Of a stretch of DNA of 64,000 nucleotides, positions 13,889 through 64,000 are shown one piece after another. Both the position numbers and the translations under genes were made by a program. Below the pieces are notes generated by a model. The model was given only the letters and a program-made list of their open reading frames with translations, ran no database searches and was not told where the DNA came from. Numbering within the stretch: position 1 is the first letter of the stretch; every line of letters starts with the position of its first letter. Source of the DNA: Eledone cirrhosa (taxonomy: Eukaryota); contig CAXHJY010000814.1 in assembly GCA_964016885.1 (NCBI GenBank), positions 1-64,000 of the forward strand, read 5' to 3'.

Positions 13889-13967
<79 letters not shown>

Positions 13968-35684: not shown

Positions 35685-35721
35685 TATATATACATGAATA
35701 TACGTATATATATACACATAT

Positions 35722-35954: not shown

Positions 35955-36561
<607 letters not shown>

Positions 36562-36592
36562 TTTATATATATGTATATATGAATATAACATA

Positions 36593-36797
36593 TGATGACG
36601 TCATCACCAGCGAGCCAGCGCTCGCAGGGAAAATAATTATGAGATTGAAATCATTGGTTACGTGACTGACACTTTTCAAATCATCACTTATGCAGTTAAG
36701 TAACAAAAAATTAATGAAGGCACCACCAGTGCAAGGGCTGCGTCGATGTCAACTCTATGTTGTTCTATTTAAAACCAGTCCTGTTGGCAGTGCAATG
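36593..36797 (+). promoter_or_regulatory. Promoter-like region upstream of the PLA2 relic
   Basis: TGATGACGTCATCA palindrome 36593-36606, TATTTAAAA 36766-36774, CAGT ~36788, ATG 36795. Confidence 0.4.
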
Positions 36798-37160
36798 TCG
36801 CAGGAACGCGGTTGCCCCTTCAGCAGGGGCGCCCCTGAACAGACGTAGACAGAAAAAAAAAACATATACACCAGGAAACACATTAGACTTAGCAGCAAAA
36901 CCACATGACTTGGACTACAACAATCCAGACAAATAATTTATCAACGCCACAATACGAAGCAGACCGACTGGGATAATTGCAAGCGGAGCAATCGCTGCAA
37001 AACATTATCTGGGACTTGATAACTACTTCTGGGGTACCCCAGAGCGTCAACATACTTAGCCTGACATTTCTAATAATAATCAGCCTCTACGTGATATGGG
37101 TGAAATGGGGCCATTATCAATCGATTTCTCAGTACGGATGGCAGGGAACACATATCGGAC
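36795..37160 (+). pseudogene. Parvovirus-type phospholipase A2 (VP1u-like) relic
   Basis: Frame of 36871: GAPLNRRRQKKKTYTPGNTLDLAAKPHDLDYNNPDK*FINATIRSRPTGIIASGAIAAKHYLGLDNYFWG; P.N.LD.AA+.HD..Y with HD at 36904-36909; Ca-binding YxGPG loop not intact. Confidence 0.75.
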
Positions 37161-37164
37161 CAGA

Positions 37165-37645
37165 CATACCACCACCAACACTCACCATCTTCCTTTCCTC
37201 ATTACCTACCACCCCGCACCTCATGCGGCTCGTCCACGACCTCCAGTCAGACCCCTCCACCTCCACTGAACTCACACCCCTCCACTCATTCAAGCGCGAA
37301 CGCAACCTCCGGAAACTTCTCATCCATAGCTCCCTTACTCCTCACACCACAGACACCATCACCCTCCACCTCCACTGAACTCACACCCCTCCACTCATTC
37401 AAGCGTGAACGCAACCCCCGGGTCTTCCTCATCCATAGCTCCCTTCCTCCTCACATCAACACCTTCCACCTAACTCACACCACTCCGGAACTTCATCCAT
37501 AGCACCCTTCCTCCGCACATCACACACACCAGCACCCTCCACCCAACACACACCCTCTATCTCCACCCAACACACACCCTCTACCTCCACCCAACACACA
37601 CCCCTCTACCTCCACCCAACACACACCCCTCCACTCATTCAAGAC
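37165..37645 (+). mobile_element. Penelope-like element RT/GIY-YIG linker fragment with tandem sub-repeats
   Basis: LPFLITYHP ... DLQSDPSTS..PLHSFKRERNLRKLLIHSSL matches the PLE linker P+..TYHP / L+.DP / +R..NL+..L+.S. Confidence 0.7.
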
Positions 37646-37649
37646 ACAA

Positions 37650-40644
37650 ACTTTGAAAACTAAGCAACACATCAATTTATACAACAACAAACATAGCGTT
37701 ACTCTCTCCGTCACTCTTCCCTCTCTCTACAATAGATTATTCCCCCCTCTCTATAATTTAACTGCTTTACTCTCTTCATGCTTCGAGGTTTAACACACCT
37801 CCTTATGGTTTCTTAGCTTCACTCTCTCCATCGCTCTTCCCTCTCTCTATAATAGATCTTTCCCCCCTCTTCGTTCAGAAACGCGAAAAAAACTTTGATA
37901 ATTAAGCAACACATAAATTTATACAACAGACAGTCATAACGATGCTCATACATCAAATAACAAAACTTAAAAAGCCGATAACACTACTCATTTGGCTGAT
38001 AACAAAAATCAACGAAAGCAGCACTGACAGCATCATTTCAGCAGAAATACCCAACCCAAAATTGGACAGAGAACTCCACAACATCGTCACTGTTCACATG
38101 GTTCATGGGCCATGCGGGAATGGTTTCAATATGAATTCGCCATGAATTAAAGAAAGAAAGTCCACCAAGAGGTATCCTAGGCCATTCCTCCAAGAAACTC
38201 AGACGGGTGGCGTCAGTTATCCATTATACCGCTGCAGGAAGCCAACGGACAGAGGAATTGTTGTGATAACACCACATCACCACGTCGACAAGCGGTGCAT
38301 TGTACCCTACTGCCCACTTCTGCTTAAAATGTTTAACGCCCACATTAACGTTGAATACTGCCACTCCGTCAAATCAATAAAGTATGTCTGCAAGTTCATC
38401 AATAAGGGGTCCGATGCTGCGTCCTTCGGTCTTACAATGCAGAACAGCCGATACATCAGCAGTAATGAAACGTTCTCACAATTCTTACACTTTACAATAT
38501 ACCATAACTACCCCCCAATCAAACAGTTGGCGGTGCACCTTGAAAACGGTCAAAGAGTCTACTTCACCGCTGCTGAGATAGCAAAGGAACCCAAGGACAC
38601 CACACTTACGGCATTTAAGTTATTCCAAAACGATCCCTTCGCCAAGACCCTCTTCTACTTTCAGGTGCCATCATACTACACATGGAACACAGACAACAGA
38701 ATTTGGTTTAGAAGGGTGAAAGGACAACCCGTTGACGGACATCCAGACATTAAAATGTCCCCAACCCTTGGGAGAGTGTACACCATTAATACCAACAGGA
38801 ATGCTTTTAATCTCCGCCTTCTACTGCATGAGGTGGTAGGACCAACATCTTTCGACGATCTGAAAACAATCAACGGAGAGACTTGTACTTCATTCCGCGC
38901 AGCCTGCCTTAGATGGGGTCTACTGGAAGATGGCACTCAGTGGGATGCGACATTGGCGGAGGCAGCTACAACACGCTCAGTGCGAACTCTTCGGCAACTC
39001 TTTGCGGTGCTACTGCAGACATGCGAGTTAAGCGACCCTGTATCCTAATGGGACAAATACAAAGAGGACCTTTCCGATGACAACATACACCAAGGACAAC
39101 TGCTACTCCCTCATTCCGACGTACGACTCAGCGACGAATTCTTCAACAAAGATCTCATTGACATCGAGGACAAAATCCTAACTGCCGGCGGAAATCACCT
39201 TCCATTCTATGGACTGCCAAAAGTTCAGCGAACGGGCTCAGAGAAACTTCCGAAGCGCATAATTCAGGAAACTGCCTACAACATCGATGCCCTCAAACTG
39301 TTCATCAACGAAAACGAGCCGAAATTGTTGCAGGACCAACAGCGGGCGCGACAGCAAAAAGGAATCGCCCGGGCTGTGGCGGCTTCTGGGATTGCTGCAA
39401 CTCTGCTGCCCGGAGGGAGGACAGCTCATTTCGCATTTAAACTACCATTCAACACGACTTCAGACGACACAATAACCTGCAACATCATCAAGGACTCTGA
39501 CAAAGCGGAAGTCTTGATTGTGTGGGACGAATGCACAATGGCCCATAAAGGATCCCTTGAGGCGTTAGACAGGACCCTACGAGACATCAGGGAATGCAAC
39601 CGGCCGATGGGAGGAGTACCTCTACTGCTGTCTGGCAATTTTCGACAAACTCTTCCAGTTGTTCCAAAAGCCACCAGGGCCGACACTGTGGGGGCTTGCA
39701 TTAAATCATCTCCCCTGTGGCAGGAAGTGACAACTTGACCCTCACAACAAACATGAGAGCCCAACTGCTCGGCGACCGCTCATCAGCAGACTTCTCAAAG
39801 GTCCTCTTAAAAGTTGGTGACAGCACTGCACCTTCAGATGCAGCTGGAGAAATGGCAGTCTCGCAAGTAAGCACTGTTGTCGACACTCTTGACGACCTCA
39901 CAGCCTCTGTCTTTCCCGATATGGCCATCAACTACAAAAACACGAGTCGTTTGTGTGATAGAGCCATATTGGCTCCCAAAAATGTCTCCGTTGCAAAAAT
40001 CAATGAGGACCTTCTGCAATGCATTCCTGGAAACCTCCGTACCTACAAATCTGTTGACAAAGATGAGGTTGACGATTTTCCAACAGAATTCCTCAATTTC
40101 TTGGACCTCTCTGGACTGCCACCTCATTAACTGCGCGTCAAAGTTGGGTCTCCAGTGATGCTGTTGAGGAACCTGGAACCACCACGTCTCTGCAACGGAA
40201 CACGGTTAGTGGCAAGAAACCTCCTGCCGCATGTAATTGAAGCCACAATTCTCACGGGCTGCGGCACTGGGGAAAACGTCTTCATACCCAGAATACCATT
40301 AACTCCATCAGGTATGGAATGCCCCTGTACTCTGCGCCGACTTCAATTCCCCGTTAAACTTTGCTTCGCGGTGTCAATCAACAAGTCTCAAGGCCAAACG
40401 CTATAAACAGCATGCCTACATTTAGCCCAGCCGTGCTTCTCACATGGCCAATTATATGCCGCATGCTCAAGACTTATTCATACTTGCGCCCAAAGGCAGA
40501 ACAAAAAATGTGGTCTACATAGAGGTGTTGTGACTCCTCTATTCAGCACCACTACAGTCTTGCCGGTCTGACATATGGTGAGTAGATGCTATTGTTGTAC
40601 TTTAAAGCAATTAAACTCCGAGCAATGGCGGGCACTTCTGCTAG
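37650..40644 (+). mobile_element. Helitron (5' end not defined) with Rep/Pif1 helicase pseudogene ~37970-40533 and canonical 3' end
   Basis: ISAEIP..HMVHGPCG, VPY.PLL.K.FNAHINVE.C.SVKSIKY, SGIAATLLPGGRTAH, IVWDECTM, FRQTLPVV, MLLRNL..LCNGTRL, QFP..INKSQGQTL, FSHGQLY; 3' CCGAGCAATGGCGG hairpin then CTAG|T at 40641-40645. Confidence 0.96.
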
Positions 40645-43600
40645 TATTAATATAATTTACTATGAATGACATTTATTGTAATTTTTATTTCCCTATGGCA
40701 ATTAAAAAGAAGAAAAGTAAAATTTGATCTAAAAGAAATATGAAAATAGAAGCCAGCCATACATCCCTTACACCTCACATCACAAACACCACCACCCCTC
40801 TACTCATTCAAGCGCAAACGCAACCTCCAAAACCACTTCATTCATAGCTCCCTTCCACCTCCTATCACAAACAGCACCACCCTCCACCTCCACTCATTCA
40901 AGCACGAACGCAACCTCCAGATCTTCCTCATCCATAGCTCCCTTCCTCCTCACATGAAAAAAACACCACCACCTTCCAAGGCCCCAACATCAAATCCCTC
41001 CCTGCCTGCCACTCTTTCTACTGCACCTCCTCCAGCTTTGTCTAGGGACTCATTTGAACGATATCTGGAGTCCCCTATGTCAAATGAACGTTGTTTCTCG
41101 CTAATATCAAATGAGGACACTGACTCATATCTTGCATTTATCTTAGATGAATACGAGGGAGAATTTCAAGAACAACAACCTCAAGGAAACAACGAGCGAA
41201 ATAGGTGACCAAGTGGATTGGGGACTTTGACCCCAGCTTTCACACTGAGTCAGGAATAAAAACAGACACTACCTACTCTGCTCAAGAAAAGAACAAAGAC
41301 AACGAGATTCCTAAGACGACTTCACTGATCAGCAGAAATGGGTGAAATACAGGCACCTAATAAAGTCAAACACAGAAGCACCAAGTCCCACTTTATTAAC
41401 AGATTCTCAATTATAATTTTCTTATATTGCATGTCATATTAATATAATTTACTTTGTATGACATTTATTGTAATTTTTATTTCTCTATGGCAATTAAAAA
41501 GAAGAAACAAAGAAATTTGATCTAAGAAAAATATGAAAATAGATGCCTGCCATAGCTCCCTTCCTCCTCACATCACAAATACCACCACACTCACACCCCT
41601 CCACTCATTCCAGCAAGAACACAACCTCCGGAAACTTCTCATCCATAGCTCCCTTACACCTCACCACAAACACCACCACCATCCAAGGGCCCAAAAGCAA
41701 ATCCTTCTCTGCCTGGCATTCCTCCTACTGCACCTCCTCCAGCTTTGTCTACGGACTCCTTTGAACGGAATCTGGAGTCCCCTATGTCAAATGAACGTTG
41801 TTTCTCGCTAATATCGAATGAGGACACTGACTCATCCGACGAATATCTTGCATTTATCTTAGATGAATACGAGGGAGAATTTCAAGAACAACAACCACAA
41901 GGAAACAACGAGCAAAATAGGTGACCAAGTGGATTGGGGACTTTGACCCCAGCTTTAACACTGAGTCAGGAATACATACAAATGCTGTTTACTCTGCTCA
42001 AAAAAAGAACAAAGACAACGAGATTCCTAAGACGACTTCACCGATCAACAGAATTGGGTGAAATACAGGCACCTAATAAAGTCAAACACAGAAACACCAA
42101 GTCCCACTTTATTAACAGATTCTCAATTATAATTTTCTTATATTGCATGTCATATTAATATAATTTACTTTGTATGACATTTATTGTAATTTTTATTTCT
42201 CTATGGCAATTAAAAAGAAGGAACAAAGAAATTTGATCTTAAAAAATTATGAAAATAGAAGACCGCCATAGCTCCCTTACACCTCACATCACAAACACCA
42301 CCACCCTCTACCACACTCACACCCTTCTATTCATTCAAGCACGAACACAACCTCCGGACCCTGTTCACCCATAGCTCCCTTCCTCATCACATTACAAACA
42401 CCATCACCCTCCTCCACTCATTCAAGTGCAAACACAACCTCCAAAACCACTTCATTCATAGCTCCCTTCCACCTATCACAAACACCATCACACTCCACCT
42501 CCACCAAACTCACAAACCTCCACACATTCAAGGACGAACGCAACCTCCAGATCTTCCTCATCCATAGCTCCCTTCCTCCTCACATCAAAAAAACACCACC
42601 ACCTTCCAAGGGTCCAACACCAAATCCCTTTCTGCATGCCACTCTTTCCACTGCACCTCCTCCAGCTTTGTCTACGGACTCTTTTGAACGGAATCTGGAG
42701 TCCCCTATATCAAATGAACGTTGTTTCTCGCTAATATCAAATGAGGACACTGACTCATATCTTGCATTTATCTTAGATGAATACGAGGGAGAATTTCAAG
42801 AACAACAACCTCAAGGAAACAACGAGCGAAATAGGTGACCAAGTGGATTGGGGACTTTGACCCCAGCTTTAACACTGAGTCAGGAATAAAAACAAACGCT
42901 ACCTACTCTGCTCAAGAAAAGAACAAAGACAACGAGATTCCTAAGACGACTTCACTGATCAGCAGAAATGGGTGAAATACAGGCACCTAATAAAGTCAAA
43001 CACAGAAGCACCAAGTCCCACTTTATTAACAGATTCTCAATTATAATTTTCTTATATTGCATGTCATATTAACATAATTTACTTTGTATGACATTTATTG
43101 TAATTTTTATTTCTCTAAGGCAATTAAAAAGAAGAAACAAAGAAATTTGATCTTAAAAAATTATGAAAATAGAAGACCGCCATAGCTCCCTTACACCTCA
43201 TATCACAAACACCACCACCCTCTACCACACTCACACCCTTCTATTCATTCAAGCACGAACACAACCTCCGGACCCTGTTCACCCATAGATCCCTTCCTCA
43301 TCACATTACAGACACCATCACCCTCCTCCACTCATTCAAGTGCAAACACAACCTCCAAAACCACTTCATTCATAGCTCCCTTCCACCTCCTATCACAAAC
43401 ACCATCACACACCACCTCCACCAAACTCACAAACCTCCACACATTCAAGGACGAACGCAACCTCCAGATCTTCCTCATCCATAGCTCCCTTCCTCCTCAC
43501 ATCAAAAAAACACCACCACCTTCCAAGGGCCCACCACCAAATCCCTTTCTGCATGCCACTCTTTCCACTGCACCTCCTCCAGCTTTGTCTACGGACTCTT

Positions 43601-46600
43601 TTGAACGGAATCTGGAGTCCCCTATGTCAAATGAACGTTGTTTCTCGCTAATATCAAATGAGGACAGTGACTCATCCGACAGACATCTTGCATTTATCTT
43701 AGATGAATACGAGGGAGAATTTCAAGAACAACAACCACAAGGAAACAACGAGCAAAATAGGTGACCAAGTGGATTGGGGACTTTGACCCCAGCTTTAACA
43801 CTGAGTCAGGCATGCAAACAAACACTACTCTACTCAAGAATAGAACAAAGACAACGAGATTCCTAAGACGACTTCACTGATCAACAGAAATGGGTGAAAT
43901 ACAGGCACCTAATAAAGTCAAACACTGAAGCACCAAGTCCCATTTTATTAACAGATTCTCAATTATAATTTTCTTATATTGCATGTCATATTAATATAAT
44001 TTACTTTGTATGACATTTATTGTAATTTTTATTTCTCTATGGCAATTAAAAAGAAGAAACAAAGAAATTTGATCTAAGAAAAATATGAAAATAGATGCCT
44101 GCCATAGCTCCCTTCCACCTCACATCACAAATACCACCACCACACTCACACCCCTCCACTCATTCCAGCAAGAACACAACCTCCGGAAACTTCTCATCCA
44201 TAGCTCCCTTACACCTCACCACAAACACCACCACCATCCAAGGGCCCAAAAGCAAATCCTTCTCTGCCTGGCATTCCTCCTACTGCACCTCCTCCAGCTT
44301 TGTCTACGGACTCCTTTGAACGGAATCTGGAGTCCCCTATGTCACATGAACGTTGTTTCTCGCTAATATCGAATGAGGACACTGACTCATCCGACAGACA
44401 TCTTGCATTTATCTTAGATGAATACGAGGGAGAATGTCAAGAACAACAACCACAAGGAAACGAGCGAAATAGGTGACCAAGTGGATTGGGGACTTTGACC
44501 CCAGCTTTAACACTGAGTCAGGCATACAAACAAACACTACTCTGCTCAAGAATAGAACAAAGACAACGAGATTCCTAAGACGACTTCACTGATCAACAGA
44601 AATGGGTGAAATACAGGCACCTAATAAAGTCAAACACAGAAACACCAAGTCCCATTTTATTAACAGATTCTCAATTATAATTTTCTTATATTGCATGTCA
44701 TATTAATATAATTTACTTTGTATGAGATTTATTGTAATTTTTATTTCTCTAAGGCAATTAAAAAGAAGAAACAAAGAAATTTGATCTTAAAAAATTATGA
44801 AAATAGAAGACCGCCATAGCTCCCTTCCACCTCACATCACAAACACCACCACCACACTCACACCCCTCCACTCATTCCAGCAAGAACACAACCTCCGGAA
44901 ACTTCTCATCCATAGCTCCCTTCCACCTCACATCACAAACACCACCACCCTCTACCACACTCACACCCTTCTATTCATTCAAGCACGAACACAACCTCCG
45001 GACCCTGTTCACCCATAGCTCCCTTCCTCATCACATTACAAACACCATCACCCTCCTCCACTCATTCAAGTGCAAACACAACCTCCAAAACCACTTCATT
45101 CATAGCTCCCTTCCACCTCTTATCACAAACACCATCACACTCCACCTCCACCAAACTCACAAACCTCCACACATTCAAGGACGAACGCAACCTCCAGATC
45201 TTCCTCATCCATAGCTCCCTTCCTCCTCACATCAAAAAAACACCACCACCTTCCAAGGGTCCAACACCAAATCCCTTTCTGCATGCCACTCTTTCCACTG
45301 CACCTCCTCCAGCTTTGTCTACGGACTCTTTTGAACGGAATCTGGAGTCCCCTATGTCAAATGAACGTTGTTTCTCGCTAATATCAAATGAGGACACTGA
45401 CTCATATCTTGCATTTATCTTAGATGAATACGAGGGAGAATTTCAAGAACAACAACCTCAAGGAAACAACGAGCGAAATAGGTGACCAAGTGGATTGGGG
45501 ACTTTGACCCCAGCTTTAACACTGAGTCAGGAATAAAAACAGACACTACCTACTCTGCTCAAGAAAAGAACAAAGACAACGAGATTCCTAAGACGACTTC
45601 ACTGATCAGCAGAAATGGGTGAAATACAGGCACCTAATAAAGTCAAACACAGAAGCACCAAGTCCCACTTTATTAACAGATTCTCAATTATAATTTTCTT
45701 ATATTGCATGTCATATTAATATAATTTACTTTGTATGACATTTATTGTAATTTTTATTTCTCTATGGCAATTAAAAAGAAGAAACAAAGAAATTTGATCT
45801 AAGAAAAATATGAAAATAGATGCCTGCCATAGCTCCCTTCCTCCTCACATCACAAATACCACCACACTCACACCCCTCCACTCATTCCAGCAAGAACACA
45901 ACCTCCGGAAACTTCTCATCCATAGCTCCCTTACACCTCACCACAAACACCACCACCATCCAAGGGCCCAAAAGCAAATCCTTCTCTGCCTGGCATTCCT
46001 CCTACTGCACCTCCTCCAGCTTTGTCTACGGACTCCTTTGAACGGAATCTGGAGTCCCCTATGTCACATGAACGTTGTTTCTCGCTAATATCGAATGAGG
46101 ACACTCACTCATCCGACAGACATCTTGCATTTATCTTAGATGAATACGAGGGAGAATTTCAAGAACAACAACCACAAGGAAACAACGAGCAAAATAGGTG
46201 ACCAAGTGGATTGGGGACTTTGACCCCAGCTTTAACACTGAGTCAAGAATACATACAAATGCTGTTTACTCTGCTCAAAAAAAGAACAAAGACAACGAGA
46301 TTCCTAAGACGACTTCACCGATCAACAGAAATGGGTGAAATACAGGCACCTAATAAAGTCAAACACAGAAACACCAAGTCCCACTTTATTAACAGATTCT
46401 CAATTATAATTTTCTTATATTGCATGTCATATTAATATAATTTACTTTGTATGACATTTATTGTAATTTTTATTTCTCTATGGCAATTAAAAAGAAGAAA
46501 CAAAGAAATTTGATCTTAAAAAATTATGAAAATAGAAGACCGCCATAGCTCCCTTACACCTCATATCACAAACACCACCACCCTCTACCACACTCACACC

Positions 46601-49600
46601 CTTCTATTCATTCAAGCACGAACACAACCTCCGGACCCTGTTCACCCATAGCTCCCTTCCTCATCACATTACAAACACCATCACCCTCCTCCACTCATTC
46701 AAGTGCAAACACAACCTCCAAAACCACTTCATTCATAGCTCCCTTCCACCTCTTATCACAAACACCATCACACTCCACCTCCACCAAACTCACAAACCTC
46801 CACACATTCAAGGACGAACGCAACCTCCAGATCTTCCTCATCCATAGCTCCCTTCCTCCTCACATCAAAAAAACACCACCACCTTCCAAGGGTCCAACAC
46901 CAAATCCCTTTCTGCATGCCACTCTTTCCACTGCACCTCCTCCAGCTTTGTCTACGGACTCTTTTGAACGGAATCTGGAGTCCCCTATGTCAAATGAACG
47001 TTGTTTCTCGCTAATATCAAATGAGGACACTGACTCATATCTTGCATTTATCTTAGATGAATACGAGGGAGAATTTCAAGAACAACAACCTCAAGGAAAC
47101 AACGAGCGAAATAGGTGACCAAGTGGATTGGGGACTTTGACCCCAGCTTTAACACTGAGTCAGGAATAAAAACAGACACTACCTACTCTGCTCAAGAAAA
47201 GAACAAAGACAACGAGATTCCTAAGACGACTTCACTGATCAGCAGAAATGGGTGAAATACAGGCACCTAATAAAGTCAAACACAGAAGCACCAAGTCCCA
47301 CTTTATTAACAGATTCTCAATTATAATTTTCTTATATTGCATGTCATATTAATATAATTTACTTTGTATGACATTTATTGTAATTTTTATTTCTCTATGG
47401 CAATTAAAAAGAAGAAACAAAGAAATTTGATCTAAGAAAAATATGAAAATAGATGCCTGCCATAGCTCCCTTCCTCCTCACATCACAAATACCACCACAC
47501 TCACACCCCTCCACTCATTCCAGCAAGAACACAACCTCCGGAAACTTCTCATCCATAGCTCCCTTACACCTCACCACAAACACCACCACCATCCAAGGGC
47601 CCAAAAGCAAATCCTTCTCTGCCTGGCATTCCTCCTACTGCACCTCCTCCAGCTTTGTCTACGGACTCCTTTGAACGGAATCTGGAGTCCCCTATGTCAC
47701 ATGAACGTTGTTTCTCGCTAATATCGAATGAGGACACTCACTCATCCGACAGACATCTTGCATTTATCTTAGATGAATACGAGGGAGAATGTCAACAACA
47801 ACAACCACAAGGAAACAACGAGCAAAATAGGTGACCAAGTGGATTGGGGACTTTGACCCCAGCTTTAACACTGAGTCAAGAATACATACAGATGCTGTTT
47901 ACTCTGCTCAAAAAAAGAACAAAGACGAGATTCCTAAGACGACTTCACCGATCAACAGAAATGGGTGAAATACAGGCACCTAATAAAGTCAAACACAGAA
48001 ACACCAAGTCCCACTTTATTAACAGATTCTCAATTATAATTTTCTTATATTGCATGTCATATTAATATAATTTACTTTGTATGACATTTATTGTAATTTT
48101 TATTTCTCTATGGCAATTAAAAAGAAGAAACAAAGAAATTTGATCTTAAAAAATTATGAAAATAGAAGACCGCCATAGCTCCCTTACACCTCATATCACA
48201 AACACCACCACCCTCTACCACACTCACACCCTTCTATTCATTCAAGCACGAACACAACCTCCGGACCCTGTTCACCCATAGCTCCCTTCCTCATCACATT
48301 ACAAACACCATCACCCTCCTCCACTCATTCAAGTGCAAACACAACCTCCAAAACCACTTCATTCATAGCTCCCTTCCACCTCTTATCACAAACACCATCA
48401 CACTCCACCTCCACCAAACTCACAAACCTCCACACATTCAAGGACGAACGCAACCTCCAGATCTTCCTCATCCATAGCTCCCTTCCTCCTCACATCAAAA
48501 AAACACCACCACCTTCCAAGGGTCCAACACCAAATCCATTTCTGCATGCCACTCTTTCCACTGCACCTCCTCCAGCTTTGTCTACGGACTCTTTTGAACG
48601 GAATCTGGAGTCCCCCATGTCAAATGAACGTTGTTTCTCGCTAATATCAAATGAGGACACTGACTCATATCTTGCATTTATCTTAGATGAATACGAGGGA
48701 GAATTTCAAGAACAACAACCTCAAGGAAACAACGAGCGAAATAGGTGACCAAGTGGATTGGGGACTTTGACCCCAGCTTTAACACTGAGTCAGGAATAAA
48801 AACAGACACTACCTACTCTGCTCAAGAATAGAACAAAGACAACGAGATTCCTAAGACGACTTCACTGATCAGCAGAAATGGGTGAAATACAGGCACCTAA
48901 TAAAGTCAAACACAGAAGCACCAAGTCCCACTTTATTAACAGATTCTCAATTATAATTTTCTTATATTGCATGTCATATTAATATAATTTACTTTGTATG
49001 ACATTTATTGTAATTTTTATTTCTCTATGGCAATTAAAAAGAAGAAACAAAGAAATTTGATCTTAAAAAATTATGAAAATAGAAGACCGCCATAGCTCCC
49101 TTCCTCCTCACATCACAAACACCACCACCACACTCACACCCCTCCACTCATTCCAGCAAGAACACAACCTCCGGAAACTTCTCATCCATAGCTCCCTTAC
49201 ACCTCACCACAAACACCACCACCATCCAAGGGCCCAAAAGCAAATCCTTCTCTGCCTGGCATTCCTCCTACTGCACCTCCTCCAGCTTTGTCTACGGACT
49301 CCTTTGAACGGAATCTGGAGTCCCCTATGTCACATGAACGTTGTTTCTCGCTAATATCGAATGAGGACACTCACTCATCCGACAGACATCTTGCATTTAT
49401 CTTAGATGAATACGAGGGAGAATTTCAAGAACAACAACCACAAGGAAACAACGAGCAAAATAGGTGACCAAGTGGATTGGGGACTTTGACCCCAGCTTTA
49501 ACACTGAGTCAGGAATACATACAGATGCTGTTTACTCTGCTCAAAAAAAGAACAAAGACAACGAGATTCCTAAGACGACTTCACCGATCAACAGAAATGG

Positions 49601-52600
49601 GTGAAATACAGGCACCTAATAAAGTCAAACACAGAAGCACCAAGTCCCATTTTATTAACAGATTCTCAATTATAATTTTCTTATATTGCATGTCATATTA
49701 ATATAATTTACTTTGTATGACATTTATTGTAATTTTTATTTCTCTATGGCAATTAAAAAGAAGAAACAAAGAAATTTGATCTTAAAAAATTATGAAAATA
49801 GAAGACCGCCATAGCTCCCTTACACCTCATATCACAAACACCACCACCCTCTACCACACTCACACCCTTCTATTCATTCAAGCACGAACACAACCTCTGG
49901 ACCCTGTTCACCCATAGCTCCCTTCCTCATCACATTACAAACACCATCACCCTCCTCCACTCATTCAAGTGCAAACACAACCTCCAAAACCACTTCATTC
50001 ATAGCTCCCTTCCACCTCTTATCACAAACACCATCACACTCCACCTCCACCAAACTCACAAACCTCCACACATTCATGGACGAACGCAACCTCCAGATCT
50101 TCCTCATCCATAGCTCCCTTCCTCCTCACATCAAAAAAACACCACCACCTTCCAAGGGTCCAACACCAAATCCCTTTCTGCATGCCACTCTTTCCACTGC
50201 ACCTCCTCCAGCTTTGTCTACGGACTCTTTTGAACGGAATCTGGAGTCCCCTATGTCAAATGAACGTTGTTTCTCGCTAATATCAAATGAGGACACTGAC
50301 TCATATCTTGCATTTATCTTAGATGAATACGAGGGAGAATTTCAAGAACAACAACCTCAAGGAAACAACGAGCGAAATAGGTGACCAAGTGGATTGGGGA
50401 CTTTGACCCCAGCTTTAACACTGAGTCAGGAATAAAAACAGACACTACCTACTCTGCTCAAGAATAGAACAAAGACAACGAGATTCCTAAGACGACTTCA
50501 CTGATCAGCAGAAATGGGTGAAATACAGGCACCTAATAAAGTCAAACACAGAAGCACCAAGTCCCACTTTATTAACAGATTCTCAATTATAATTTTCTTA
50601 TATTGCATGTCATATTAATATAATTTACTTTGTATGACATTTATTGTAATTTTTATTTCTCTATGGCAATTAAAAAGAAGAAACAAAGAAATTTGATCTT
50701 AAAAAATTATGAAAATAGAAGACCGCCATAGCTCCCTTCCTCCTCACATCACAAACACCACCACCACACTCACACCCCTCCACTCATTCCAGCAAGAACA
50801 CAACCTCCGGAAACTTCTCATCCATAGCTCCCTTACACCTCACCACAAACACCACCACCATCCAAGGGCCCAAAAGCAAATCCTTCTCTGCCTGGCATTC
50901 CTCCTACTGCACCTCCTCCAGCTTTGTCTACGGACTCCTTTGAACGGAATCTGGAGTCCCCTATGTCACATGAACGTTGTTTCTCGCTAATATCGAATGA
51001 GGACACTCACTCATCCGACAGACATCTTGCATTTATCTTAGATGAATACGAGGGAGAATTTCAAGAACAACAACCACAAGGAAACAACGAGCAAAATAGG
51101 TGACCAAGTGGATTGGGGACTTTGACCCCAGCTTTAACACTGAGTCAGGAATACATACAGATGCTGTCTACTCTGCTCAAAAAAAGAACAAAGACAACGA
51201 GATTCCTAAGACGACTTCACCGATCAACAGAAATGGGTGAAATACAGGCACCTAATAAAGTCAAACACAGAAGCACCAAGTCCCATTTTATTAACAGATT
51301 CTCAATTATAATTTTCTTATATTGCATGTCATATTAATATAATTTACTTTGTATGACATTTATTGTAATTTTTATTTCTCTATGGCAATTAAAAAGAAGA
51401 AACAAAGAAATTTGATCTTAAAAAATTATGAAAATAGAAGACCGCCATAGCTCCCTTACACCTCATATCACAAACACCACCACCCTCTACCACACTCACA
51501 CCCTTCTATTCATTCAAGCACGAACACAACCTCTGGACCCTGTTCACCCATAGCTCCCTTCCTCATCACATTACAAACACCATCACCCTCCTCCACTCAT
51601 TCAAGTGCAAACACAACCTCCAAAACCACTTCATTCATAGCTCCCTTCCACCTCTTATCACAAACACCATCACACTCCACCTCCACCAAACTCACAAACC
51701 TCCACACATTCATGGACGAACGCAACCTCCAGATCTTCCTCATCCATAGCTCCCTTCCTCCTCACATCAAAAAAACACCACCACCTTCCAAGGGTCCAAC
51801 ACCAAATCCCTTTCTGCATGCCACTCTTTCCACTGCACCTCCTCCAGCTTTGTCTACGGACTCTTTTGAACGGAATCTGGAGTCCCCTATGTCAAATGAA
51901 CGTTGTTTCTCGCTAATATCAAATGAGGACACTGACTCATATCTTGCATTTATCTTAGATGAATACGAGGGAGAATTTCAAGAACAACAACCTCAAGGAA
52001 ACAACGAGCGAAATAGGTGACCAAGTGGATTGGGGACTTTGACCCCAGCTTTAACACTGAGTCAGGAATAAAAACAGACACTACCTACTCTGCTCAAGAA
52101 TAGAACAAAGACAACGAGATTCCTAAGACGACTTCACTGATCAGCAGAAATGGGTGAAATACAGGCACCTAATAAAGTCAAACACAGAAGCACCAAGTCC
52201 CACTTTATTAACAGATTCTCAATTATAATTTTCTTATATTGCATGTCATATTAATATAATTTACTTTGTATGACATTTATTGTAATTTTTATTTCTCTAT
52301 GGCAATTAAAAAGAAGAAACAAAGAAATTTGATCTTAAAAAATTATGAAAATAGAAGACCGCCATAGCTCCCTTCCTCCTCACATCACAAACACCACCAC
52401 CACACTCACACCCCTCCACTCATTCCAGCAAGAACACAACCTCCGGAAACTTCTCATCCATAGCTCCCTTACACCTCACCACAAACACCACCACCATCCA
52501 AGGGCCCAAAAGCAAATCCTTCTCTGCCTGGCATTCCTCCTACTGCACCTCCTCCAGCTTTGTCTACGGACTCCTTTGAACGGAATCTGGAGTCCCCTAT

Positions 52601-55600
52601 GTCACATGAACGTTGTTTCTCGCTAATATCGAATGAGGACACTCACTCATCCGACAGACATCTCGCATTTATCTTAGATGAATACGAGGGAGAATTTCAA
52701 GAACAACAACCACAAGGAAACAACGAGCAAAATAGGTGACCAAGTGGATTGGGGACTTTGACCCCAGCTTTAACACTGAGTCAGGAATACATACAAATGC
52801 TGTTTACTCTGCTCAAAAAAAGAACAAAGACAACGAGATTCCTAAGACGACTTCACTGATCAACAGAAATGGGTGAAATACAGGCACCTAATAAAGTCAA
52901 ACACAGAAACACCAAGTCCCACTTTATTAACAGATTCTCAATTATAATTTTCTTATATTGCATGTCATATTAATATAATTTACTTTGTATGACATTTATT
53001 GTAATTTTTATTTCTCTATGGCAATTAAAAAGAAGAAACAAAGAAATTTGATCTTAAAAAATTATGAAAATAGAAGACCGCCATAGCTCCCTTACACCTC
53101 ATATCACAAACACCACCACCCTCTACCACACTCACACCCTTCTATTCATTCAAGCACGAACACAACCTCCGGACCCTGTTCACCCATAGCTCCCTTCCTC
53201 ATCACATTACAAACACCATCACCCTCCTCCACTCATTCAAGTGCAAACACAACCTCCAAAACCACTTCATTCATAGCTCCCTTCCACCTCCTATCACAAA
53301 CACCATCACACTCCACCTCCACCAAACTCACAAACCTCCACACATTCAAGGACGAACGCAACCTCCAGATCTTCCTCATCCATAGCTCCCTTCCTCCACA
53401 CATCAAAAAAACACCACCACCTTCCAAGGGCCCAACACCAAATCCCTTTCTGCATGCCGCTCTTTCCACTGCACCTCCTCCAGCTTTGTCTACGGACTCT
53501 TTTGAACGGAATCTGGAGTCCCCTATGTCAAATGAACGTTGTTTCTCGCTAATATCAAATGAGGACACTGACTCATATCTTGCATTTATCTTAGATGAAT
53601 ACGAGGGAGAATTTCAAGAACAACAACCTCAAGGAAACAACGAGCGAAATAGGTGACCAAGTGGATTGGGGACTTTGACCCCAGCTTTAACACTGAGTCA
53701 GGAATAAAAACAGACACTACCTACTCTGCTCAAGAAAAGAACAAAGACAACGAGATTCCTAAGACGACTTCACTGATCAGCAGAAATGGGTGAAATACAG
53801 GCACCTAATAAAGTCAAACACAGAAGCACCAAGTCCCACTTTATTAACAGATTCTCAATTATAATTTTCTTATATTGCATGTCATATTAATATAATTTAC
53901 TTTGTATGACATTTATTGTAATTTTTATTTCTCTATGGCAATTAAAAAGAAGAAACAAAGAAATTTGATCTAAGAAAAATATGAAAATAGATGCCTGCCA
54001 TAGCTCCCTTCCTCCTCACATCACAAATACCACCACACTCACACCCCTCCACTCATTCCAGCAAGAACACAACCTCCGGAAACTTCTCATCCATAGCTCC
54101 CTTACACCTCACCACAAACACCACCACCATCCAAGGGCCCAAAAGCAAATCCTTCTCTGCCTGGCATTCCTCCTACTGCACCTCCTCCAGCTTTGTCTAC
54201 GGACTCCTTTGAACGGAATCTGGAGTCCCCTATGTCACATGAACGTTGTTTCTCGCTAATATCAAATGAGGACACTCACTCATCCGACAGACATCTTGCA
54301 TTTATCTTAGATGAATACGAGGGAGAATTTCAAGAACAACAACCACAAGGAAACAACGAGCAAAATAGGTGACCAAGTGGATTGGGGACTTTGACCCCAG
54401 CTTTAACACTGAGTCAGGAATACATACAAATGCTGTTTACTCTGCTCAAAAAAAGAACAAAGACAACGAGATTCCTAAGACGACTTCACCGATCAGCAGA
54501 AATGGGTGAAATACAGGCACCTAATAAAGTCAAACACAGAAACACCAAGTCCCACTTTATTAACAGATTCTCAATTATAATTTTCTTATATTGCATGTCA
54601 TATTAATATAATTTACTTTGTATGACATTTATTGTAATTTTTATTTCTCTATGGCAATTAAAAAGAAGAAACAAAGAAATTTGATCTTAAAAAATTATGA
54701 AAATAGAAGACCGCCATAGCTCCCTTCCTCCTCACATCACAAACACCACCACCCTCTACCACACTCACACCCTTCTATTCATTCAAGCACGAACACAACC
54801 TCCGGACCCTGTTCACCCATAGCTCCCTTCCTCATCACATTACAAACACCATCACCCTCCTCCACTCATTCAAGTGCAAACACAACCTCCAAAACCACTT
54901 CATTCATAGCTCCCTTCCACCTCTTATCACAAACACCATCACACTCCACCTCCACCAAACTCACAAACCTCCACACATTCAAGGACGAACGCAACCTCCA
55001 GATCTTCCTCATCCATAGCTCCCTTCCTCCTCACATCAAAAAAACACCACCACCTTCCAAGGGTCCAACACCAAATCCCTTTCTGCATGCCACTCTTTCC
55101 ACTGCACCTCCTCCAGCTTTGTCTACGGACTCTTTTGAACGGAATCTGGAGTCCCCTATGTCAAATGAACGTTGTTTCTCGCTAATATCAAATGAGGACA
55201 CTGACTCATATCTTGCATTTATCTTAGATGAATACGAGGGAGAATTTCAAGAACAACAACCTCAAGGAAACAACGAGCGAAATAGGTGACCAAGTGGATT
55301 GGGGACTTTGACCCCAGCTTTAACACTGAGTCAGGAATAAAAACAGACACTACCTACTCTGCTCAAGAAAAGAACAAAGACAACGAGATTCCTAAGACGA
55401 CTTCACTGATCAGCAGAAATGGGTGAAATACAGGCACCTAATAAAGTCAAACACAGAAGCACCAAGTCCCACTTTATTAACAGATTCTCAATTATAATTT
55501 TCTTATATTGCATGTCATATTAATATAATTTACTTTGTATGACATTTATTGTAATTTTTATTTCTCTATGGCAATTAAAAAGAAGAAACAAAGAAATTTG

Positions 55601-58600
55601 ATCTAAAAAAAATATGAAAATAGAAGCCTGCCATAGCTCCCTTCCTCCTCACATCACAAATACCACCACACTCACACCCCTCCACTCATTCCAGCAAGAA
55701 CACAACCTCCGGAAACTTCTCATCCATAGCTCCCTTACACCTCACCACAAACACCACCACCATCCAAGGGCCCAAAAGCAAATCCTTCTCTGCCTGGCAT
55801 TCCTCCTACTGCACCTCCTCCAGCTTTGTCTACGGACTCCTTTGAACGGAATCTGGAGTCCCCTATGTCACATGAACGTTGTTTCTCGCTAATATCGAAT
55901 GAGGACACTCACTCATCCGACAGACATCTTGCATTTATCTTAGATGAATACGAGGGAGAATTTCAAGAACAACAACCACAAGGAAACAACGAGCAAAATA
56001 GGTGACCAAGTGGATTGGGGACTTTGACCCCAGCTTTAACACTGAGTCAAGAATACATACAAATGCTGTTTACTCTGCTCAAAAAAAGAACAAAGACAAC
56101 GAGATTCCTAAGACGACTTCACCGATCAACAGAAATGGGTGAAATACAGGCACCTAATAAAGTCAAACACAGAAGCACCAAGTCCCACTTTATTAACAGA
56201 TTCTCAATTATAATTTTCTTATATTGCATGTCATATTAACATAATTTACTTTGTATGACATTTATTGTAATTTTTATTTCTCTAAGGCAATTAAAAAGAA
56301 GAAACAAAGAAATTTGATCTTAAAAAATTATGAAAATAGAAGACCGCCATAGCTCCCTTACACCTCATATCACAAACACCACCACCCTCTACCACACTCA
56401 CACCCTTCTATTCATTTATGCACGAACACAACCTCCGGACCCTGTTCACCCATAGATCCCTTCCTCATCACATTACAGACACCATCACCCTCCTCCACTC
56501 ATTCAAGTGCAAACACAACCTCCAAAACCACTTCATTCATAGCTCCCTTCCACCTCCTATCACAAACACCATCACACACCACCTCCACCAAACTCACAAA
56601 CCTCCACACATTCAAGGACGAACGCAACCTCCAGATCTTCCTCATCCATAGCTCCCTTCCTCCTCACATCAAAAAAACACCACCACCTTCCAAGGGCCCA
56701 ACACCAAATCCTTCTCTGCCTGGCATTCCTCCTACTGCACCTCCTCCAGCTTTGTCTACGGACTCTTTTGAACGGAATCTGGAGTCCCCTATGTCAAATG
56801 AACGTTGTTTCTCGCTAATATCAAATGAGGACACTGACTCATCCGACAGACATCTTGCATTTATCTTAGATGAATACGAGGGAGAATTTCAAGAACAACA
56901 ACCTCAAGGAAACAACGAGCGAAATAGGTGACCAAGTGGATTGGGGACTTTGACCCCAGCTTTAACACTGAGTCAGGCATACAAACAAACACTACTCTGC
57001 TCAAAAAAAGAACAAAGACAACGAGATTCCTAAGACGACTTCACTGATCAGCAGAAATGGGTGAAATACAGGCACCTAATAAAGTCAAACACAGAAACAC
57101 CAAGTCCCACTTTATTAACAGATTCTCAATTATAATTTTCTTATATTGCATGTCATATTAATATAATTTACTTTGTATGACATTTATTGTAATTTTTATT
57201 TCTCTATGGCAATTAAAAAGAAGAAACAAAGAAATTTGATCTAAGAAAAATATGAAAATAGATGCCTGCCATAGCTCCCTTCCTCCTCACATCACAAATA
57301 CCACCACACTCACACCCCTCCACTCATTCCAGCAAGAACACAACCTCCGGAAACTTCTCATCCATAGCTCCCTTACACCTCACCACAAACACCACCACCA
57401 TCCAAGGGCCCAAAAGCAAATCCTTCTCTGCCTGGCATTCCTCCTACTGCACCTCCTCCAGCTTTGTCTACGGACTCCTTTGAACGGAATCTGGAGTCCC
57501 CTATGTCACATGAACGTTGTTTCTCGCTAATATCGAATGAGGACACTCACTCATCCGACAGACATCTCGCATTTATCTTAGATGAATACGAGGGAGAATG
57601 TCAACAACAACAACCACAAGGAAACAACGAGCAAAATAGGTGACCAAGTGGATTGGGGACTTTGACCCCAGCTTTAACACTGAGTCAAGAATACATACAG
57701 ATGCTGTTTACTCTGCTCAAAAAAAGAACAAAGACATCGAGATTCCTAAGACGACTTCACCGATCAACAGAATTGGGTGAAATACAGGCACCTAATAAAG
57801 TCAAACACAGAAACACCAAGTCCCACTTTATTAACAGATTCTCAATTATAATTTTCTTATATTGCATGTCATATTAATATAATTTACTTTGTATGACATT
57901 TATTGTAATTTTTATTTCTCTATGGCAATTAAAAAGAAGAAACAAAGAAATTTGATCTTAAAAAATTATGAAAATAGAAGACCGCCATAGCTCCCTTCCT
58001 CCTCACATCACAAACACCACCACCCTCTACCACACTCACACCCTTCTATTCATTCAAGCACGAACACAACCTCCGGACCCTGTTCACCCATAGCTCCCTT
58101 CCTCATCACATTACAAACACCATCACCCTCCTCCACTCATTCAAGTGCAAACACAACCTCCAAAACCACTTCATTCATAGCTCCCTTCCACCTCCTATCA
58201 GAAACACCATCACACTCCACCTCCACCAAACTCACAAACCTCCACACATTCAAGGTCGAACGCAAACTCCAGATCTTCCTCATCCATAGCTCCCTTCCTC
58301 CTCACATCAAAAAAACACCACCACCTTCCAAGGGTCCAACACCAAATCCCTTTCTGCATGCCACTCTTTCCACTGCACCTCCTCCAGCTTTGTCTACGGA
58401 CTCTTTTGAACGGAATCTGGAGTCCCCTATGTCAAATGAACGTTGTTTCTCGCTAATATCAAATGAGGACACTGACTCATCCGACGAATATCTTGCATTT
58501 ATCTTAGATGAATACGAGGGAGAATTTCAAGAACAACAACCTCAAGGAAACAACGAGCGAAATAGGTGACCAAGTGGATTGGGGACTTTGACCCCAGCTT

Positions 58601-61600
58601 TAACACTGAGTCAGGAATAAAAACAAACGCTACCTACTCTGCTCAAGAAAAGAACAAAGACAACGAGATTCCTAAGACGACTTCACTGATCAGCAGAAAT
58701 GGGTGAAATACAGGCACCTAATAAAGTCAAACACAGAAGCACCAAGTCCCACTTTATTAACAGATTCTCAATTATAATTTTCTTATATTGCATGTCATAT
58801 TAACCTAATTTACTTTGTATGACATTTATTGTAATTTTTATTTCTCTAAGGCAATTAAAAAGAAGAAACAAAGAAATTTGATCTAAGAAAACTATGAAAA
58901 TAGATGCCTGCCATAGCTCCCTTCCTCCTCACATCACAAATACCACCACACTCACACCCCTCCACTCATTCCAGCAAGAACACAACCTCCGGAAACTTCT
59001 CATCCATAGCTCCCTTACACCTCACCACAAACACCACCACCATCCAAGGGCCCAAAAACAAATCCTTCTCTGCCTGGCATTCCTCCTACTGCACCTCCTC
59101 CAGCTTTGTCTACGGACTCCTTTGAATGGAATCTGGAGTCCCCTATGTCACATGAACGTTGTTTCTCGCTAATATCGAATGAGGACACTCACTCATCCGA
59201 CAGACATCTTGCATTTATCTTAGATGAATACGAGGGAGAATTTCAAGAACAACAACCACAAGGAAACAACGAGCAAAATAGGTGACCAAGTGGATTGGGG
59301 ACTTTGACCCCAGCTTTAACACTGAGTCAAGAATACATACAAATGCTGTTTACTCTGCTCAAAAAAAGAACAAAGACAACGAGATTCCTAAGACGACTTC
59401 ACCGATCAACAGAAATGGGTGAAATACAGGCACCTAATAAAGTCAAACACAGAAACACCAAGTCCCACTTTATTAACAGATTCTCAATTATAATTTTCTT
59501 ATATTGCATGTCATATTAATATAATTTACTTTGTATGACATTTATTGTAATTTTTATTTCTCTATGGCATTTAAAAAGAAGAAACAAAGAAATTTGATCT
59601 TAAAAAATTATGAAAATAGAAGACCGCCATAGCTCCCTTACACCTCATATCACAAACACCACCACCCTCTACCACACTCACACCCTTCTATTCATTCAAG
59701 CACGAACACAACCTCCGGACCCTGTTCACCCATAGCTCCCTTCCTCATCACATTACAAACACCATCACCCTCCTCCACTCATTCAAGTGCAAACACAACC
59801 TCCAAAACCACTTCATTCATAGCTCCCTTCCACCTCTTATCACAAACACCATCACACTCCACCTCCACCAAACTCACAAACCTCCACACATTCAAGGACG
59901 AACGCAACCTCCAGATCTTCCTCATCCATAGCTCTCTTCCTCCTCACATCAAAAAAACACCACCACCTTCCAAGGGTCCAACACCAAATCCCTTTCTGCA
60001 TGCCACTCTTTCCACTGCACCTCCTCCAGCTTTGTCTACGGACTCTTTTGAACGGAATCTGGAGTCCCCTATGTCAAATGAACGTTGTTTCTCGCTAATA
60101 TCAAATGAGGACACTGACTCATATCTTGCATTTATCTTAGATGAATACGAGGGAGAATTTCAAGAACAACCTCAAGGAAACAACGAGCGAAATAGGTGAC
60201 CAAGTGGATTGGGGACTTTGACCCCAGCTTTAACACTGAGTCAGGCATACAAACAAACACTACTCTGCTCAAAAAAAGAACAAAGACAACGAGATTCCTA
60301 AGACGACTTCACTGATCAGCAGAAATGGGTGAAATACAGGCACCTAATAAAGTCAAACACAGAAACACCAAGTCCCACTTTATTAACAGATTCTCAATTA
60401 TAATTTTCTTATATTGCATGTCATATTAATATAATTTACTTTGTATGACATTTATTGTAATTTTTATTTCTCTATGGCAATTAAAAAGAAGAAACAAAGA
60501 AATTTGATCTAAGAAAAATATGAAAATAGATGCCTGCCATAGCTCCCTTCCTCCTCACATCACAAATACCACCACACTCACACCCCTCCACTCATTCCAG
60601 CAAGAACACAACCTCCGGAAACTTCTCATCCATAGCTCCCTTACACCTCACCACAAACACCACCACCATCCAAGGGCCCAAAAGCAAATCCTTCTCTGCC
60701 TGGCATTCCTCCTACTGCACCTCCTCCAGCTTTGTCTACGGACTCCTTTGAACGGAATCTGGAGTCCCCTATGTCACATGAACGTTGTTTCTCGCTAATA
60801 TCGAATGAGGACACTCACTCATCCGACAGACATCTCGCATTTATCTTAGATGAATACGAGGGAGAATGTCAACAACAACAACCACAAGGAAACAACGAGC
60901 AAAATAGGTGACCAAGTGGATTGGGGACTTTGACCCCAGCTTTAACACTGAGTCAAGAATACATACAGATGCTGTTTACTCTGCTCAAAAAAAGAACAAA
61001 GACATCGAGATTCCTAAGACGACTTCACCGATCAACAGAATTGGGTGAAATACAGGCACCTAATAAAGTCAAACACAGAAACACCAAGTCCCACTTTATT
61101 AACAGATTCTCAATTATAATTTTCTTATATTGCATGTCATATTAATATAATTTACTTTGTATGACATTTATTGTAATTTTTATTTCTCTATGGCAATTAA
61201 AAAGAAGAAACAAAGAAATTTGATCTTAAAAAATTATGAAAATAGAAGACCGCCATAGCTCCCTTACACCTCATATCACAAACACCACCACCCTCTACCA
61301 CACTCACACCCTTCTATTTATTCAAGCACGAACACAACCTCCGGACCCTGTTCACCCATAGCTCCCTTCCTCATCACATTACAAACACCATCACCCTCCT
61401 CCACTCATTCAAGTGCAAACACAACCTCCAAAACCACTTCATTCATAGCTCCCTTCCACCTCTTATCACAAACACCATCACACTCCACCTCCACCAAACT
61501 CACAAACCTCCACACATTCAAGGACGAACGCAACCTCCAGATCTTCCTCATCCATAGCTCCCTTCCTCCTCACATCAAAAAAACACCACCACCTTCCAAG

Positions 61601-64000
61601 GGTCCAACACCAAATCCCTTTCTGCATGCCACTCTTTCCACTGCACCTCCTCCAGCTTTGTCTACGGACTCTTTTGAACGGAATCTGGAGTCCCCTATGT
61701 CAAATGAACGTTGTTTCTCGCTAATATCAAATGAGGACACTGACTCATATCTTGCATTTATCTTAGATGAATACGAGGGAGAATTTCAAGAACAACAACC
61801 TCAAGGAAACAACGAGCGAAATAGGTGACCAAGTGGATTGGGGACTTTGACCCCAGCTTTAACACTGAGTCAGGAATAAAAACAAACGCTACCTACTCTG
61901 CTCAAGAAAAGAACAAAGACAACGAGATTCCTAAGACGACTTCACTGATCAGCAGAAATGGGTGAAATACAGGCACCTAATAAAGTCAAACACAGAAGCA
62001 CCAAGTCCCACTTTATTAACAGATTCTCAATTATAATTTTCTTATATTGCATGTCATATTAATATAATTTACTTTGTATGACATTTATTGTAATTTTTAT
62101 TTCTCTATGGCAATTAAAAAGAAGAAACAAAGAAATTTGATCTAAGAAAAATATGAAAATAGATGCCTGCCATAGCTCCCTTCCTCCTCACATCACAAAT
62201 ACCACCACACTCACACCCCTCCACTCATTCCAGCAAGAACACAACCTCCGGAAACTTCTCATCCATAGCTCCCTTACACCTCACCACAAACACCACCACC
62301 ATCCAAGGGCCCAAAAGCAAATCCTTCTCTGCCTGGCATTCCTCCTACTGCACCTCCTCCAGCTTTGTCTACGGACTCCTTTGAACGGAATCTGGAGTCC
62401 CCTATGTCACATGAACGTTGTTTCTCGCTAATATCGAATGAGGACACTCACTCATCCGACAGACATCTCGCATTTATCTTAGATGAATACGAGGGAGAAT
62501 TTCAAGAACAACAACCACAAGGAAACAACGAGCAAAATAGGTGACCAAGTGGATTGGGGACTTTGACCCCAGCTTTAACACTGAGTCAGGAATACATACA
62601 AATGCTGTTTACTCTGCTCAAAAAAAGAACAAAGACATCGAGATTCCTAAGACGACTTCACCGATCAACAGAATTGGGTGAAATACAGGCACCTAATAAA
62701 GTCAAACACAGAAGCACCAAGTCCCACTTTATTAACAGATTCTCAATTATAATTTTCTTATATTGCATGTCATATTAATATAATTTACTTTGTATGACAT
62801 TTATTGTAATTTTTATTTCTCTATGGCAATTAAAAAGAAGAAACAAAGAAATTTGATCTTAAAAAATTATGAAAATAGAAGACCGCCATAGCTCCCTTCC
62901 TCCTCACATCACAAACACCACCACCCTCTACCACACTCACACCCTTCTATTCATTCAAGCACGAACACAACCTCCGGACCCTGTTCACCCATAGCTCCCT
63001 TCCTCATCACATTACAAACACCATCACCCTCCTCCACTCATTCAAGTGCAAACACAACCTCCAAAACCACTTCATTCATAGCTCCCTTCCACCTCCTATC
63101 AGAAACACCATCACACTCCACCTCCACCAAACTCACAAACCTCCACACATTCAAGGTCGAACGCAAACTCCAGATCTTCCTCATCCATAGCTCCCTTCCT
63201 CCTCACATCAAAAAAACACCACCACCTTCCAAGGGTCCAACACCAAATCCCTTTCTGCATGCCACTCTTTCCACTGCACCTCCTCCAGCTTTGTCTACGG
63301 ACTCTTTTGAACGGAATCTGGAGTCCCCTATGTCAAATGAACGTTGTTTCTCGCTAATATCAAATGAGGACACTGACTCATCCGACGAATATCTTGCATT
63401 TATCTTAGATGAATACGAGGGAGAATTTCAAGAACAACAACCTCAAGGAAACAACGAGCGAAATAGGTGACCAAGTGGATTGGGGACTTTGACCCCAGCT
63501 TTAACACTGAGTCAGGAATAAAAACAAACGCTACCTACTCTGCTCAAGAAAAGAACAAAGACAACGAGATTCCTAAGACGACTTCACTGATCAGCAGAAA
63601 TGGGTGAAATACAGGCACCTAATAAAGTCAAACACAGAAGCACCAAGTCCCACTTTATTAACAGATTCTCAATTATAATTTTCTTATATTGCATGTCATA
63701 TTAATATAATTTACTTTGTATGACATTTATTGTAATTTTTATTTCTCTATGGCAATTAAAAAGAAGAAACAAAGAAATTTGATCTAAGAAAAATATGAAA
63801 ATAGATGCCTGCCATAGCTCCCTTCCACCTCACATCACAAATACCACCACCACACTCACACCTCTCCACTCATTCCAGCAAGAACACAACCTCCGGAAAC
63901 TTCTCATCCATAGCTCCCTTACACCTCACCACAAACACCACCACCATCCAAGGGCCCAAAAGCAAATCCTTCTCTGCCTGGCATTCCTCCTACTGCACCT
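40645..64000 (+). repeat. Satellite array: ~715-bp (A) and ~920-bp (B) related monomers forming a 1626-1642-bp dimeric higher-order repeat; runs off the window end
   Basis: A-monomer starts at 41533, 44085, 45810, 47443, 49073, 50709, 52345, 53981, 55614, 57252, 58894, 60520, 62153, 63794. Confidence 0.99.

Follow-up and report, generated by a model that had tools for sequence, protein, structure and literature searches.

The tandem array that occupies the right-hand part of the 64,000-nucleotide stretch of the Eledone cirrhosa genome analysed here (assembly GCA_964016885.1, contig CAXHJY010000814.1, positions 1 to 64,000; hereafter the window) is a satellite linked to transposons, in which a coding relic can still be traced. 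Its unit is a chimera of two parts: a decayed coding segment homologous to an orphan open reading frame (ORF) at 29406-29846, beside an endogenous parvoviral element, and subrepeats of Penelope origin common to the Helitron-like element that borders the array. Being chimeric, the whole unit is not simply amplified viral DNA.

The array lies on the forward strand, as do the orphan frames, the ETS-CRE motif, PLA2, NS1, the Tc1/mariner insertion and the Helitron-like element with its Penelope fragment, and extends from 40645 to 64000, still running at the end of the window. It holds 28 full units of 712-1013 bp and a partial one of 302 bp, in agreement with the initial annotation, which had the monomer amplified about 28 times or more. 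Over its 23 kb, mostly alternating units of ~716 and ~917 bp make up a higher-order dimer of ~1633 bp, and over their last 430 nt, units of either main type differ among themselves by ~0-2% and from those of the other type by up to 7%. It is thus a long, head-to-tail and homogenised complex tandem array, and a young one. No RNA datasets were listed as containing array sequence, and run X4, with an array-word share of only 0.07, was counted as no evidence. An example unit opens with an AT-rich head (41437-41549), the first ~48 nt of which prolong the homology to the 3' flank of the orphan; towards the orphan's 5' side the head is only marginally similar (31 of 1000 shuffles match or exceed the score). 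The Penelope subrepeats follow at 41550-41685, then the coding relic in two blocks with one in-frame stop between them (41769-41960), and finally a 3' non-coding block (42116-42200) that is homologous, more weakly, to 29858-29933 and starts on the diagonal of block 1.

Unit and orphan are genuinely homologous, over more sequence than first reported. The initial annotation had aligned 41829-41870 with 29571-29612 without gaps, at 29/42 nt and 8/14 aa, and had listed the synonymous pairs GCA/GCT, ATC/ATT, GAT/GAC and TAC/TAT together with two D/E swaps; all of this was reproduced. An upstream similarity written as IW[SN][PT]L had to be given up, because the satellite copy sits in another frame and the in-frame pair is NLESPM/NIWNTL. 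The 125-nt local alignment of unit and orphan scores 62 against 27.5±3.5 in dinucleotide shuffles, none of 500 reaching it, and neither did any of 1000 shuffles in each of three local-window schemes or any of 1000 codon shuffles. At the protein level the score is 65 against 33±4 (0/2000 shuffles), the highest among 580 stop-free segments in positions 1-40644, and across all 28 full copies the scores against the orphan are 48-62 for DNA and 49-76 for protein. A second block, GLGTLTPA/RFGTPSPA, had been overlooked. It ranks first among 1620 background tiles, as does block 1; the two are collinear and their spacing keeps the frame. The 3' non-coding block, overlooked as well, scores 38 against 21±3 (0/1000 shuffles), yet ranks only 5-6 of 1620 real tiles. 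Units starting at 47347, 57156, 60424 and 43989 have a Cys in common with the orphan that is missing from the other copies, and the same holds for a His in 11 units; orphan residues present in some array variants only are as expected from common descent.

That the similarity is a chance match of A-rich sequences is very improbable, and largely refuted. For chance speaks that the match is lost under stringent scoring (2/-3; 26 against 21.5±2.4, reached by 36 of 500 shuffles), that blastn at E<=1 does not report it, and that the unit tail scored 46 (0/200 shuffles) against 33184-33296, an AT-rich stretch within the repeat insertion in NS1 where we regard the match as compositional. Since this unrelated AT-rich match also beat its own shuffles, the shuffle nulls are generous here, and for this reason and the loss under stringent scoring we give the ranks among real tiles more weight than the shuffle P-values. 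Against chance stand two separate blocks that each come first among the real tiles, ordered and in frame, an orphan pairing that is the best of all the protein segments, and an excess of identity at second codon positions.

This excess is also what tells how the two sequences have diverged. Along the ungapped 44-codon diagonal, the identities at first, second and third codon positions number 18/30/18, a second-position excess with P=0.003; for the 20 codons upstream, which are independent of how the match was found, P is 0.08. The homologous frame, frame A, has one stop in all 28 copies, against 4-7 in the other two frames. With second codon positions the most conserved, the orphan and the unit diverged as protein-coding sequences, and because a neutral duplicate would not show such a pattern, they point back to two separately functional gene ancestors and not to one recent local copy. 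The earlier claim of a single protein family, its members diverging under constraint on the encoded protein, is thus supported by the second-position excess, the frame-keeping block offsets and the low number of stops in frame A. The relic itself is decaying, as the DSSDEY motif is intact in only 3 of the 28 copies, while a 9-bp deletion has shortened it in 11 and SDRH stands in its place in 14. Frames that start with Met are 42-46 aa long in 23 copies and 84-102 aa in four, and one copy has none. Among the variants within the array 7 are synonymous and 13 non-synonymous (P=0.11), and all three indels keep the frame, a pattern that neither demonstrates nor rules out present constraint. The array is likely no longer protein-coding.

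The other part of the unit leads to the left border of the array. Its first base, 40645, comes immediately after the CTAG (40641-40644) that ends a defective Helitron-like element at 36560-40644, the 5' end being approximate. The element has a PIF1 helicase region at 38146-40490 (PIF1, E 8e-36; Pif1_2B, E 1.5e-9) and at its 3' end CTAG|T with a weak subterminal hairpin (-3.8 kcal/mol). No Pfam match to an HUH Rep domain was obtained in it, and its Rep-like stretches are putative. Within the element, at 37189-37661, lies a Neptune-type Penelope thumb/linker fragment with its own 109-bp duplication, which is the source family of the array subrepeats. Read across a frameshift, 37248-37661 resembles the Neptune thumb/linker and fits, by eye and unscored, the Neptune1_Ap row in the published alignment of PMC8557442. 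The Helitron cargo carries the motif PF[TL].TYHP...DP...PL.SFKR..NL...S like the Neptune elements in that alignment, the second half of it being the array subrepeat; unlike full Neptune elements only ~50 codons are present here, and a reverse transcriptase core, a GIY-YIG endonuclease and a hammerhead ribozyme were looked for and not found.

About 20-40% of each unit is made up of subrepeats, ~2-5 of them by motif count, that share 70-90% identity with 37248-37661, a component that the first reading of the sequence had missed. One long unit aligns in order with the two subrepeat copies in the cargo (83.5% over 188 nt), and more of the upstream Penelope sequence is retained in the cargo than in the units, from which it follows that the repeats came from this element family, or that both had a common source. 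The idea that the unit is the central repeat of a HINE, or a tandem array of Helitrons, was rejected, as the units have no element ends and the array lies outside the 3' end. The 5' cargo of the Helitron-like element also includes, before the Penelope piece, an open frame (36977-37200) with a hydrophobic, membrane-helix-like stretch and no match in Pfam, NCBIfam or PHROGs.

The orphan locus consists of two overlapping frames. Frame A, the one homologous to the satellite, encodes 146 aa at 29406-29846 without a Met, and could be a spliced exon or a relic; it contains a 33-bp repeat in 3.2 copies (29681-29786). Frame B, shifted by +1, encodes 160 aa at 29389-29871 and has an ATG at 29444. Among 20000 codon shuffles of the 92 non-repeat codons, 891 left a +1 frame open (P ~0.015-0.045), and the second frame of four control ORFs extended over just 30-66 codons. 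Upstream, at 29148-29161, is an exact ETS-CRE composite promoter motif of the kind described in PMC3464117. It is the sole match in the window at <=2 mismatches where 0.09 are expected, the pattern having been derived from this site. Such motifs are compatible with host and viral promoters alike. The orphan core is single-copy, with a depth of 13-14 compared to 11-19 for the viral element (clean bins, run X1); runs X1 and X2 derive from a single sample, which may be the source of the window itself, and are therefore not independent. The depth analysis covered four of the seven runs listed.

Searches of both sequences against viral and other protein collections gave no homologs. A HMMER scan of 1.84 billion proteins with the orphan and unit alignment gave no hit at E<=0.001, a word-indexed search of proteins of 80-256 aa none at E<=1 among 1217 candidates, and there was no homolog of orphan or unit in ESM Atlas, Pfam, NCBIfam, PHROGs, PDB sequences or JGI metagenomes. 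The predicted structure of the orphan is poor (pLDDT 46.5) and has no meaningful fold match, and a CARD or death-fold protein was rejected for want of any CARD profile match or fold support. Just upstream of the promoter, at 28190-28900, lies a multicopy element with a summed depth of ~160-800, against ~12 for single copy, and adjoining it a short TTAA-flanked element at ~27870-28090. A likeness of the former to piggyBac had no Pfam support.

From left to right, the orphan frames are followed by SINE and LINE (short and long interspersed element) pieces, the parvoviral element (~31085-34040), a Tc1 element, a stretch of minisatellite, SINE and (TA)n, the Helitron-like element and the array. 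The SINE-like repeats and a LINE endonuclease fragment (Exo_endo_phos, E 4.8e-6) at 29891-31084 are high-copy, with a summed depth of 10^4-10^6. The parvoviral element has a parvovirus-type PLA2 domain at 31530-31742, broken by a stop (PF08398, E 1.7e-5, above the curated cut-off), and ~260 bp downstream of it, on the same strand, an NS1 at 32004-33817 that is broken by stops, frameshifts and a repeat insertion. This NS1 is of the type with an SF3 helicase and matches P0001 (tblastn E 1e-122), which carries Parvo_NS1; the 15 family members of P0001 among the matches listed are all from Logan assemblies. An AATAAA at 34020 and then repeats follow downstream. No capsid body was seen in the element, only the PLA2 domain upstream of NS1. 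A high-copy repeat fragment within NS1, at 33196-33305, shows as a depth peak and a gap in the tblastn alignments. With PLA2 preceding NS1, the stretch 31530-33817 may stand for a parvovirus lineage not yet described. A contig of ~2 kb in X1/X2 is ~80% identical to NS1 over ~270 nt (window 32520-32781) and is a second NS1-like sequence in the sample, from which we conclude that related viruses have integrated more than once.

We hypothesize that the orphan family is a 5' accessory gene of the parvovirus lineage that integrated here, and rate such an origin at slightly under an even chance. That the satellite was virus-derived, possibly from a viral accessory gene, had been suggested at the outset; this is plausible but unproven, because no homolog was found in any collection searched. 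The support is circumstantial: the orphan lies on the same strand as the PLA2-NS1 element with only high-copy repeats between them, it has single-copy depth, dual frames and no protein homolog, there is the second NS1-like sequence, and precedents exist for PLA2 ahead of NS1. The orphan would then be the left cassette of the PLA2-NS1 element, separated from it by later SINE and LINE insertions, and a second, related virus would have left a diverged copy of the orphan gene nearby. The chimeric unit could have arisen by insertion of the Helitron into a unit, or by read-through at its 3' end, together with recombination with the Helitron cargo, and unequal exchange may then have expanded and homogenised it. 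Taken as a whole, an unsampled parvovirus lineage of the order orphan-PLA2-NS1 would have integrated twice, and the dual-frame accessory gene of the second virus, joined to Helitron-borne Penelope repeats, would have grown into a satellite at least 23 kb long that may supply antiviral small RNAs. We give this full scenario a probability of roughly 35%.

Several observations weigh against it. The orphan and the unit have no homology to known parvoviral proteins, 16 NS1-family proteins giving no match there, no related viral contig from which to read gene order was found, and the orphan has no DNA similarity to the PLA2/NS1 region. There is no terminal hairpin beside the orphan, and no 120-nt window upstream of it has a z below -2.5; terminal hairpins do decay in old insertions. 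The orphan comes before PLA2, unlike in SwaBA-MePV-1 where an orphan comes after it, its AT skew of 0.11-0.16 is below the 0.23-0.30 of the element, and the left edge of the element abuts the LINE fragment, which is possibly a true integration border. Two related integrations within ~11 kb are demanded. The left half of a unit that one would expect before the Helitron was not found, and since no unit matches either end of the Helitron-like element, the units are not rolling-circle concatemers of it. The unit or the orphan as a continuation of the right end of the viral element was tried and rejected, 90, 41 and 133 of 500 shuffles reaching the scores.

One alternative is that the orphan is a fast-evolving host gene, that a paralog from a local cluster was captured into the unit, and that the virus inserted between the paralogs. 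Sequence of the orphan family does flank the viral element on both sides, with the orphan to the left and the array to the right, a single viral integration would suffice, and the orphan is single-copy. The ETS-CRE motif is typical of host promoters and is followed by an upstream ATG and candidate splice donors, but frame A is without a Met, and a pyrimidine tract is missing at the candidate acceptors. A host gene would also have to be without any protein homolog, and dual open frames are unusual for host genes. We consider this explanation unlikely.

Another is that the orphan was a cargo or accessory gene of the Helitron, of Penelope or of the multicopy element at 28.2-28.9 kb, so that the array would be wholly transposon-derived. 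Penelope sequence in common with the Helitron-like element is already present in the unit, and the orphan has the multicopy element as its near upstream neighbour. Oyster has many satellites linked to Helitrons (PMC8268682), and Penelope elements are able to mobilise genes (PMC3846280). On the other hand, the upstream element is multicopy but the orphan core, at 80% likeness, single-copy, neither frame has a transposon domain, and the orphan bears no clear similarity to the Helitron body; between the 5' regions of orphan and Helitron a score of 34 was reached by 4 of 500 shuffles, a post-hoc pick among ten tests. We consider this explanation as unlikely as that of a host gene.

Whatever the source of the orphan, the array works like a known kind, as Helitron-linked satellites are well known in oyster. 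The Helitron/Helentron-associated satellite DNAs of Crassostrea gigas, Cg_HINE (PMC7492417, PMC8268682), are likewise tandem arrays physically tied to a rolling-circle element with sequence in common, and have monomers of several hundred bp too. The Cg_HINE arrays described there are short central repeats inside non-autonomous elements, whereas the present array, 23 kb long and of higher-order structure, is situated beyond the 3' end of the element, with a coding relic and a Penelope fragment in its unit. For the viral element, the nearest likeness noted is in gene order. The SwaBA-MePV-1-like "megaparvoviruses" and their endogenous viral elements in beetles have the order PLA2, unknown ORF, NS1, VP, and in hamaviruses there are small ORFs at the 5' end whose function is unknown (PMC13426907). 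In common with the SwaBA-MePV-1 group, the locus has an ORF for PLA2 that precedes NS1 on one strand, extra cassettes of unknown function and endogenous copies, but its order is orphan, PLA2, NS1, without any VP found.

For an endogenous parvovirus in octopus, or a densovirus with PLA2 upstream of NS1, nothing was found in the literature searched, most subscription journals lying outside its scope, and the same search gave no precedent for a satellite made from a parvoviral gene. The geminivirus-related DNA arrays of Nicotiana are reportedly tandemly amplified sequence of a single-stranded DNA virus, for which a link to Helitrons has been proposed. They are said to hold a recognisable Rep, whereas the piece amplified here is an orphan of putative viral origin.

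The window is rich in other repeats. A Tc1/mariner insertion with 59-nt inverted arms and transposase domains occupies 34131-35924, and the minisatellite between it and the Helitron-like element has a period of 49 bp. A 61-bp minisatellite occurs twice, in opposite orientations, at 1203-1755 (~9 copies) and 24915-26690 (~29 copies), a 31-bp array is found at 17570-18533, and 12000-15300 is a nest resembling miniature inverted-repeat transposable elements, in which a single repeat family has several copies facing either way.

Most satellites cannot be traced to a source, but here the parts are still visible: a coding relic, a Penelope fragment and a Helitron-like edge. With a single-copy homolog 11 kb from a young array, the steps from gene fragment to higher-order satellite become testable. 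Should the orphan be a gene of the host or of a transposon, the array is an ordinary satellite linked to transposons, one whose pedigree is unusually clear. If it is viral, the locus records an accessory gene and the unusual gene order of an unsampled parvovirus lineage. Should two viruses have integrated, a second PLA2-NS1 relic is predicted past the far end of the array, and the array would be an animal satellite DNA made from the gene of a DNA virus. A viral orphan would also show a route for viral DNA to become bulk heterochromatin.

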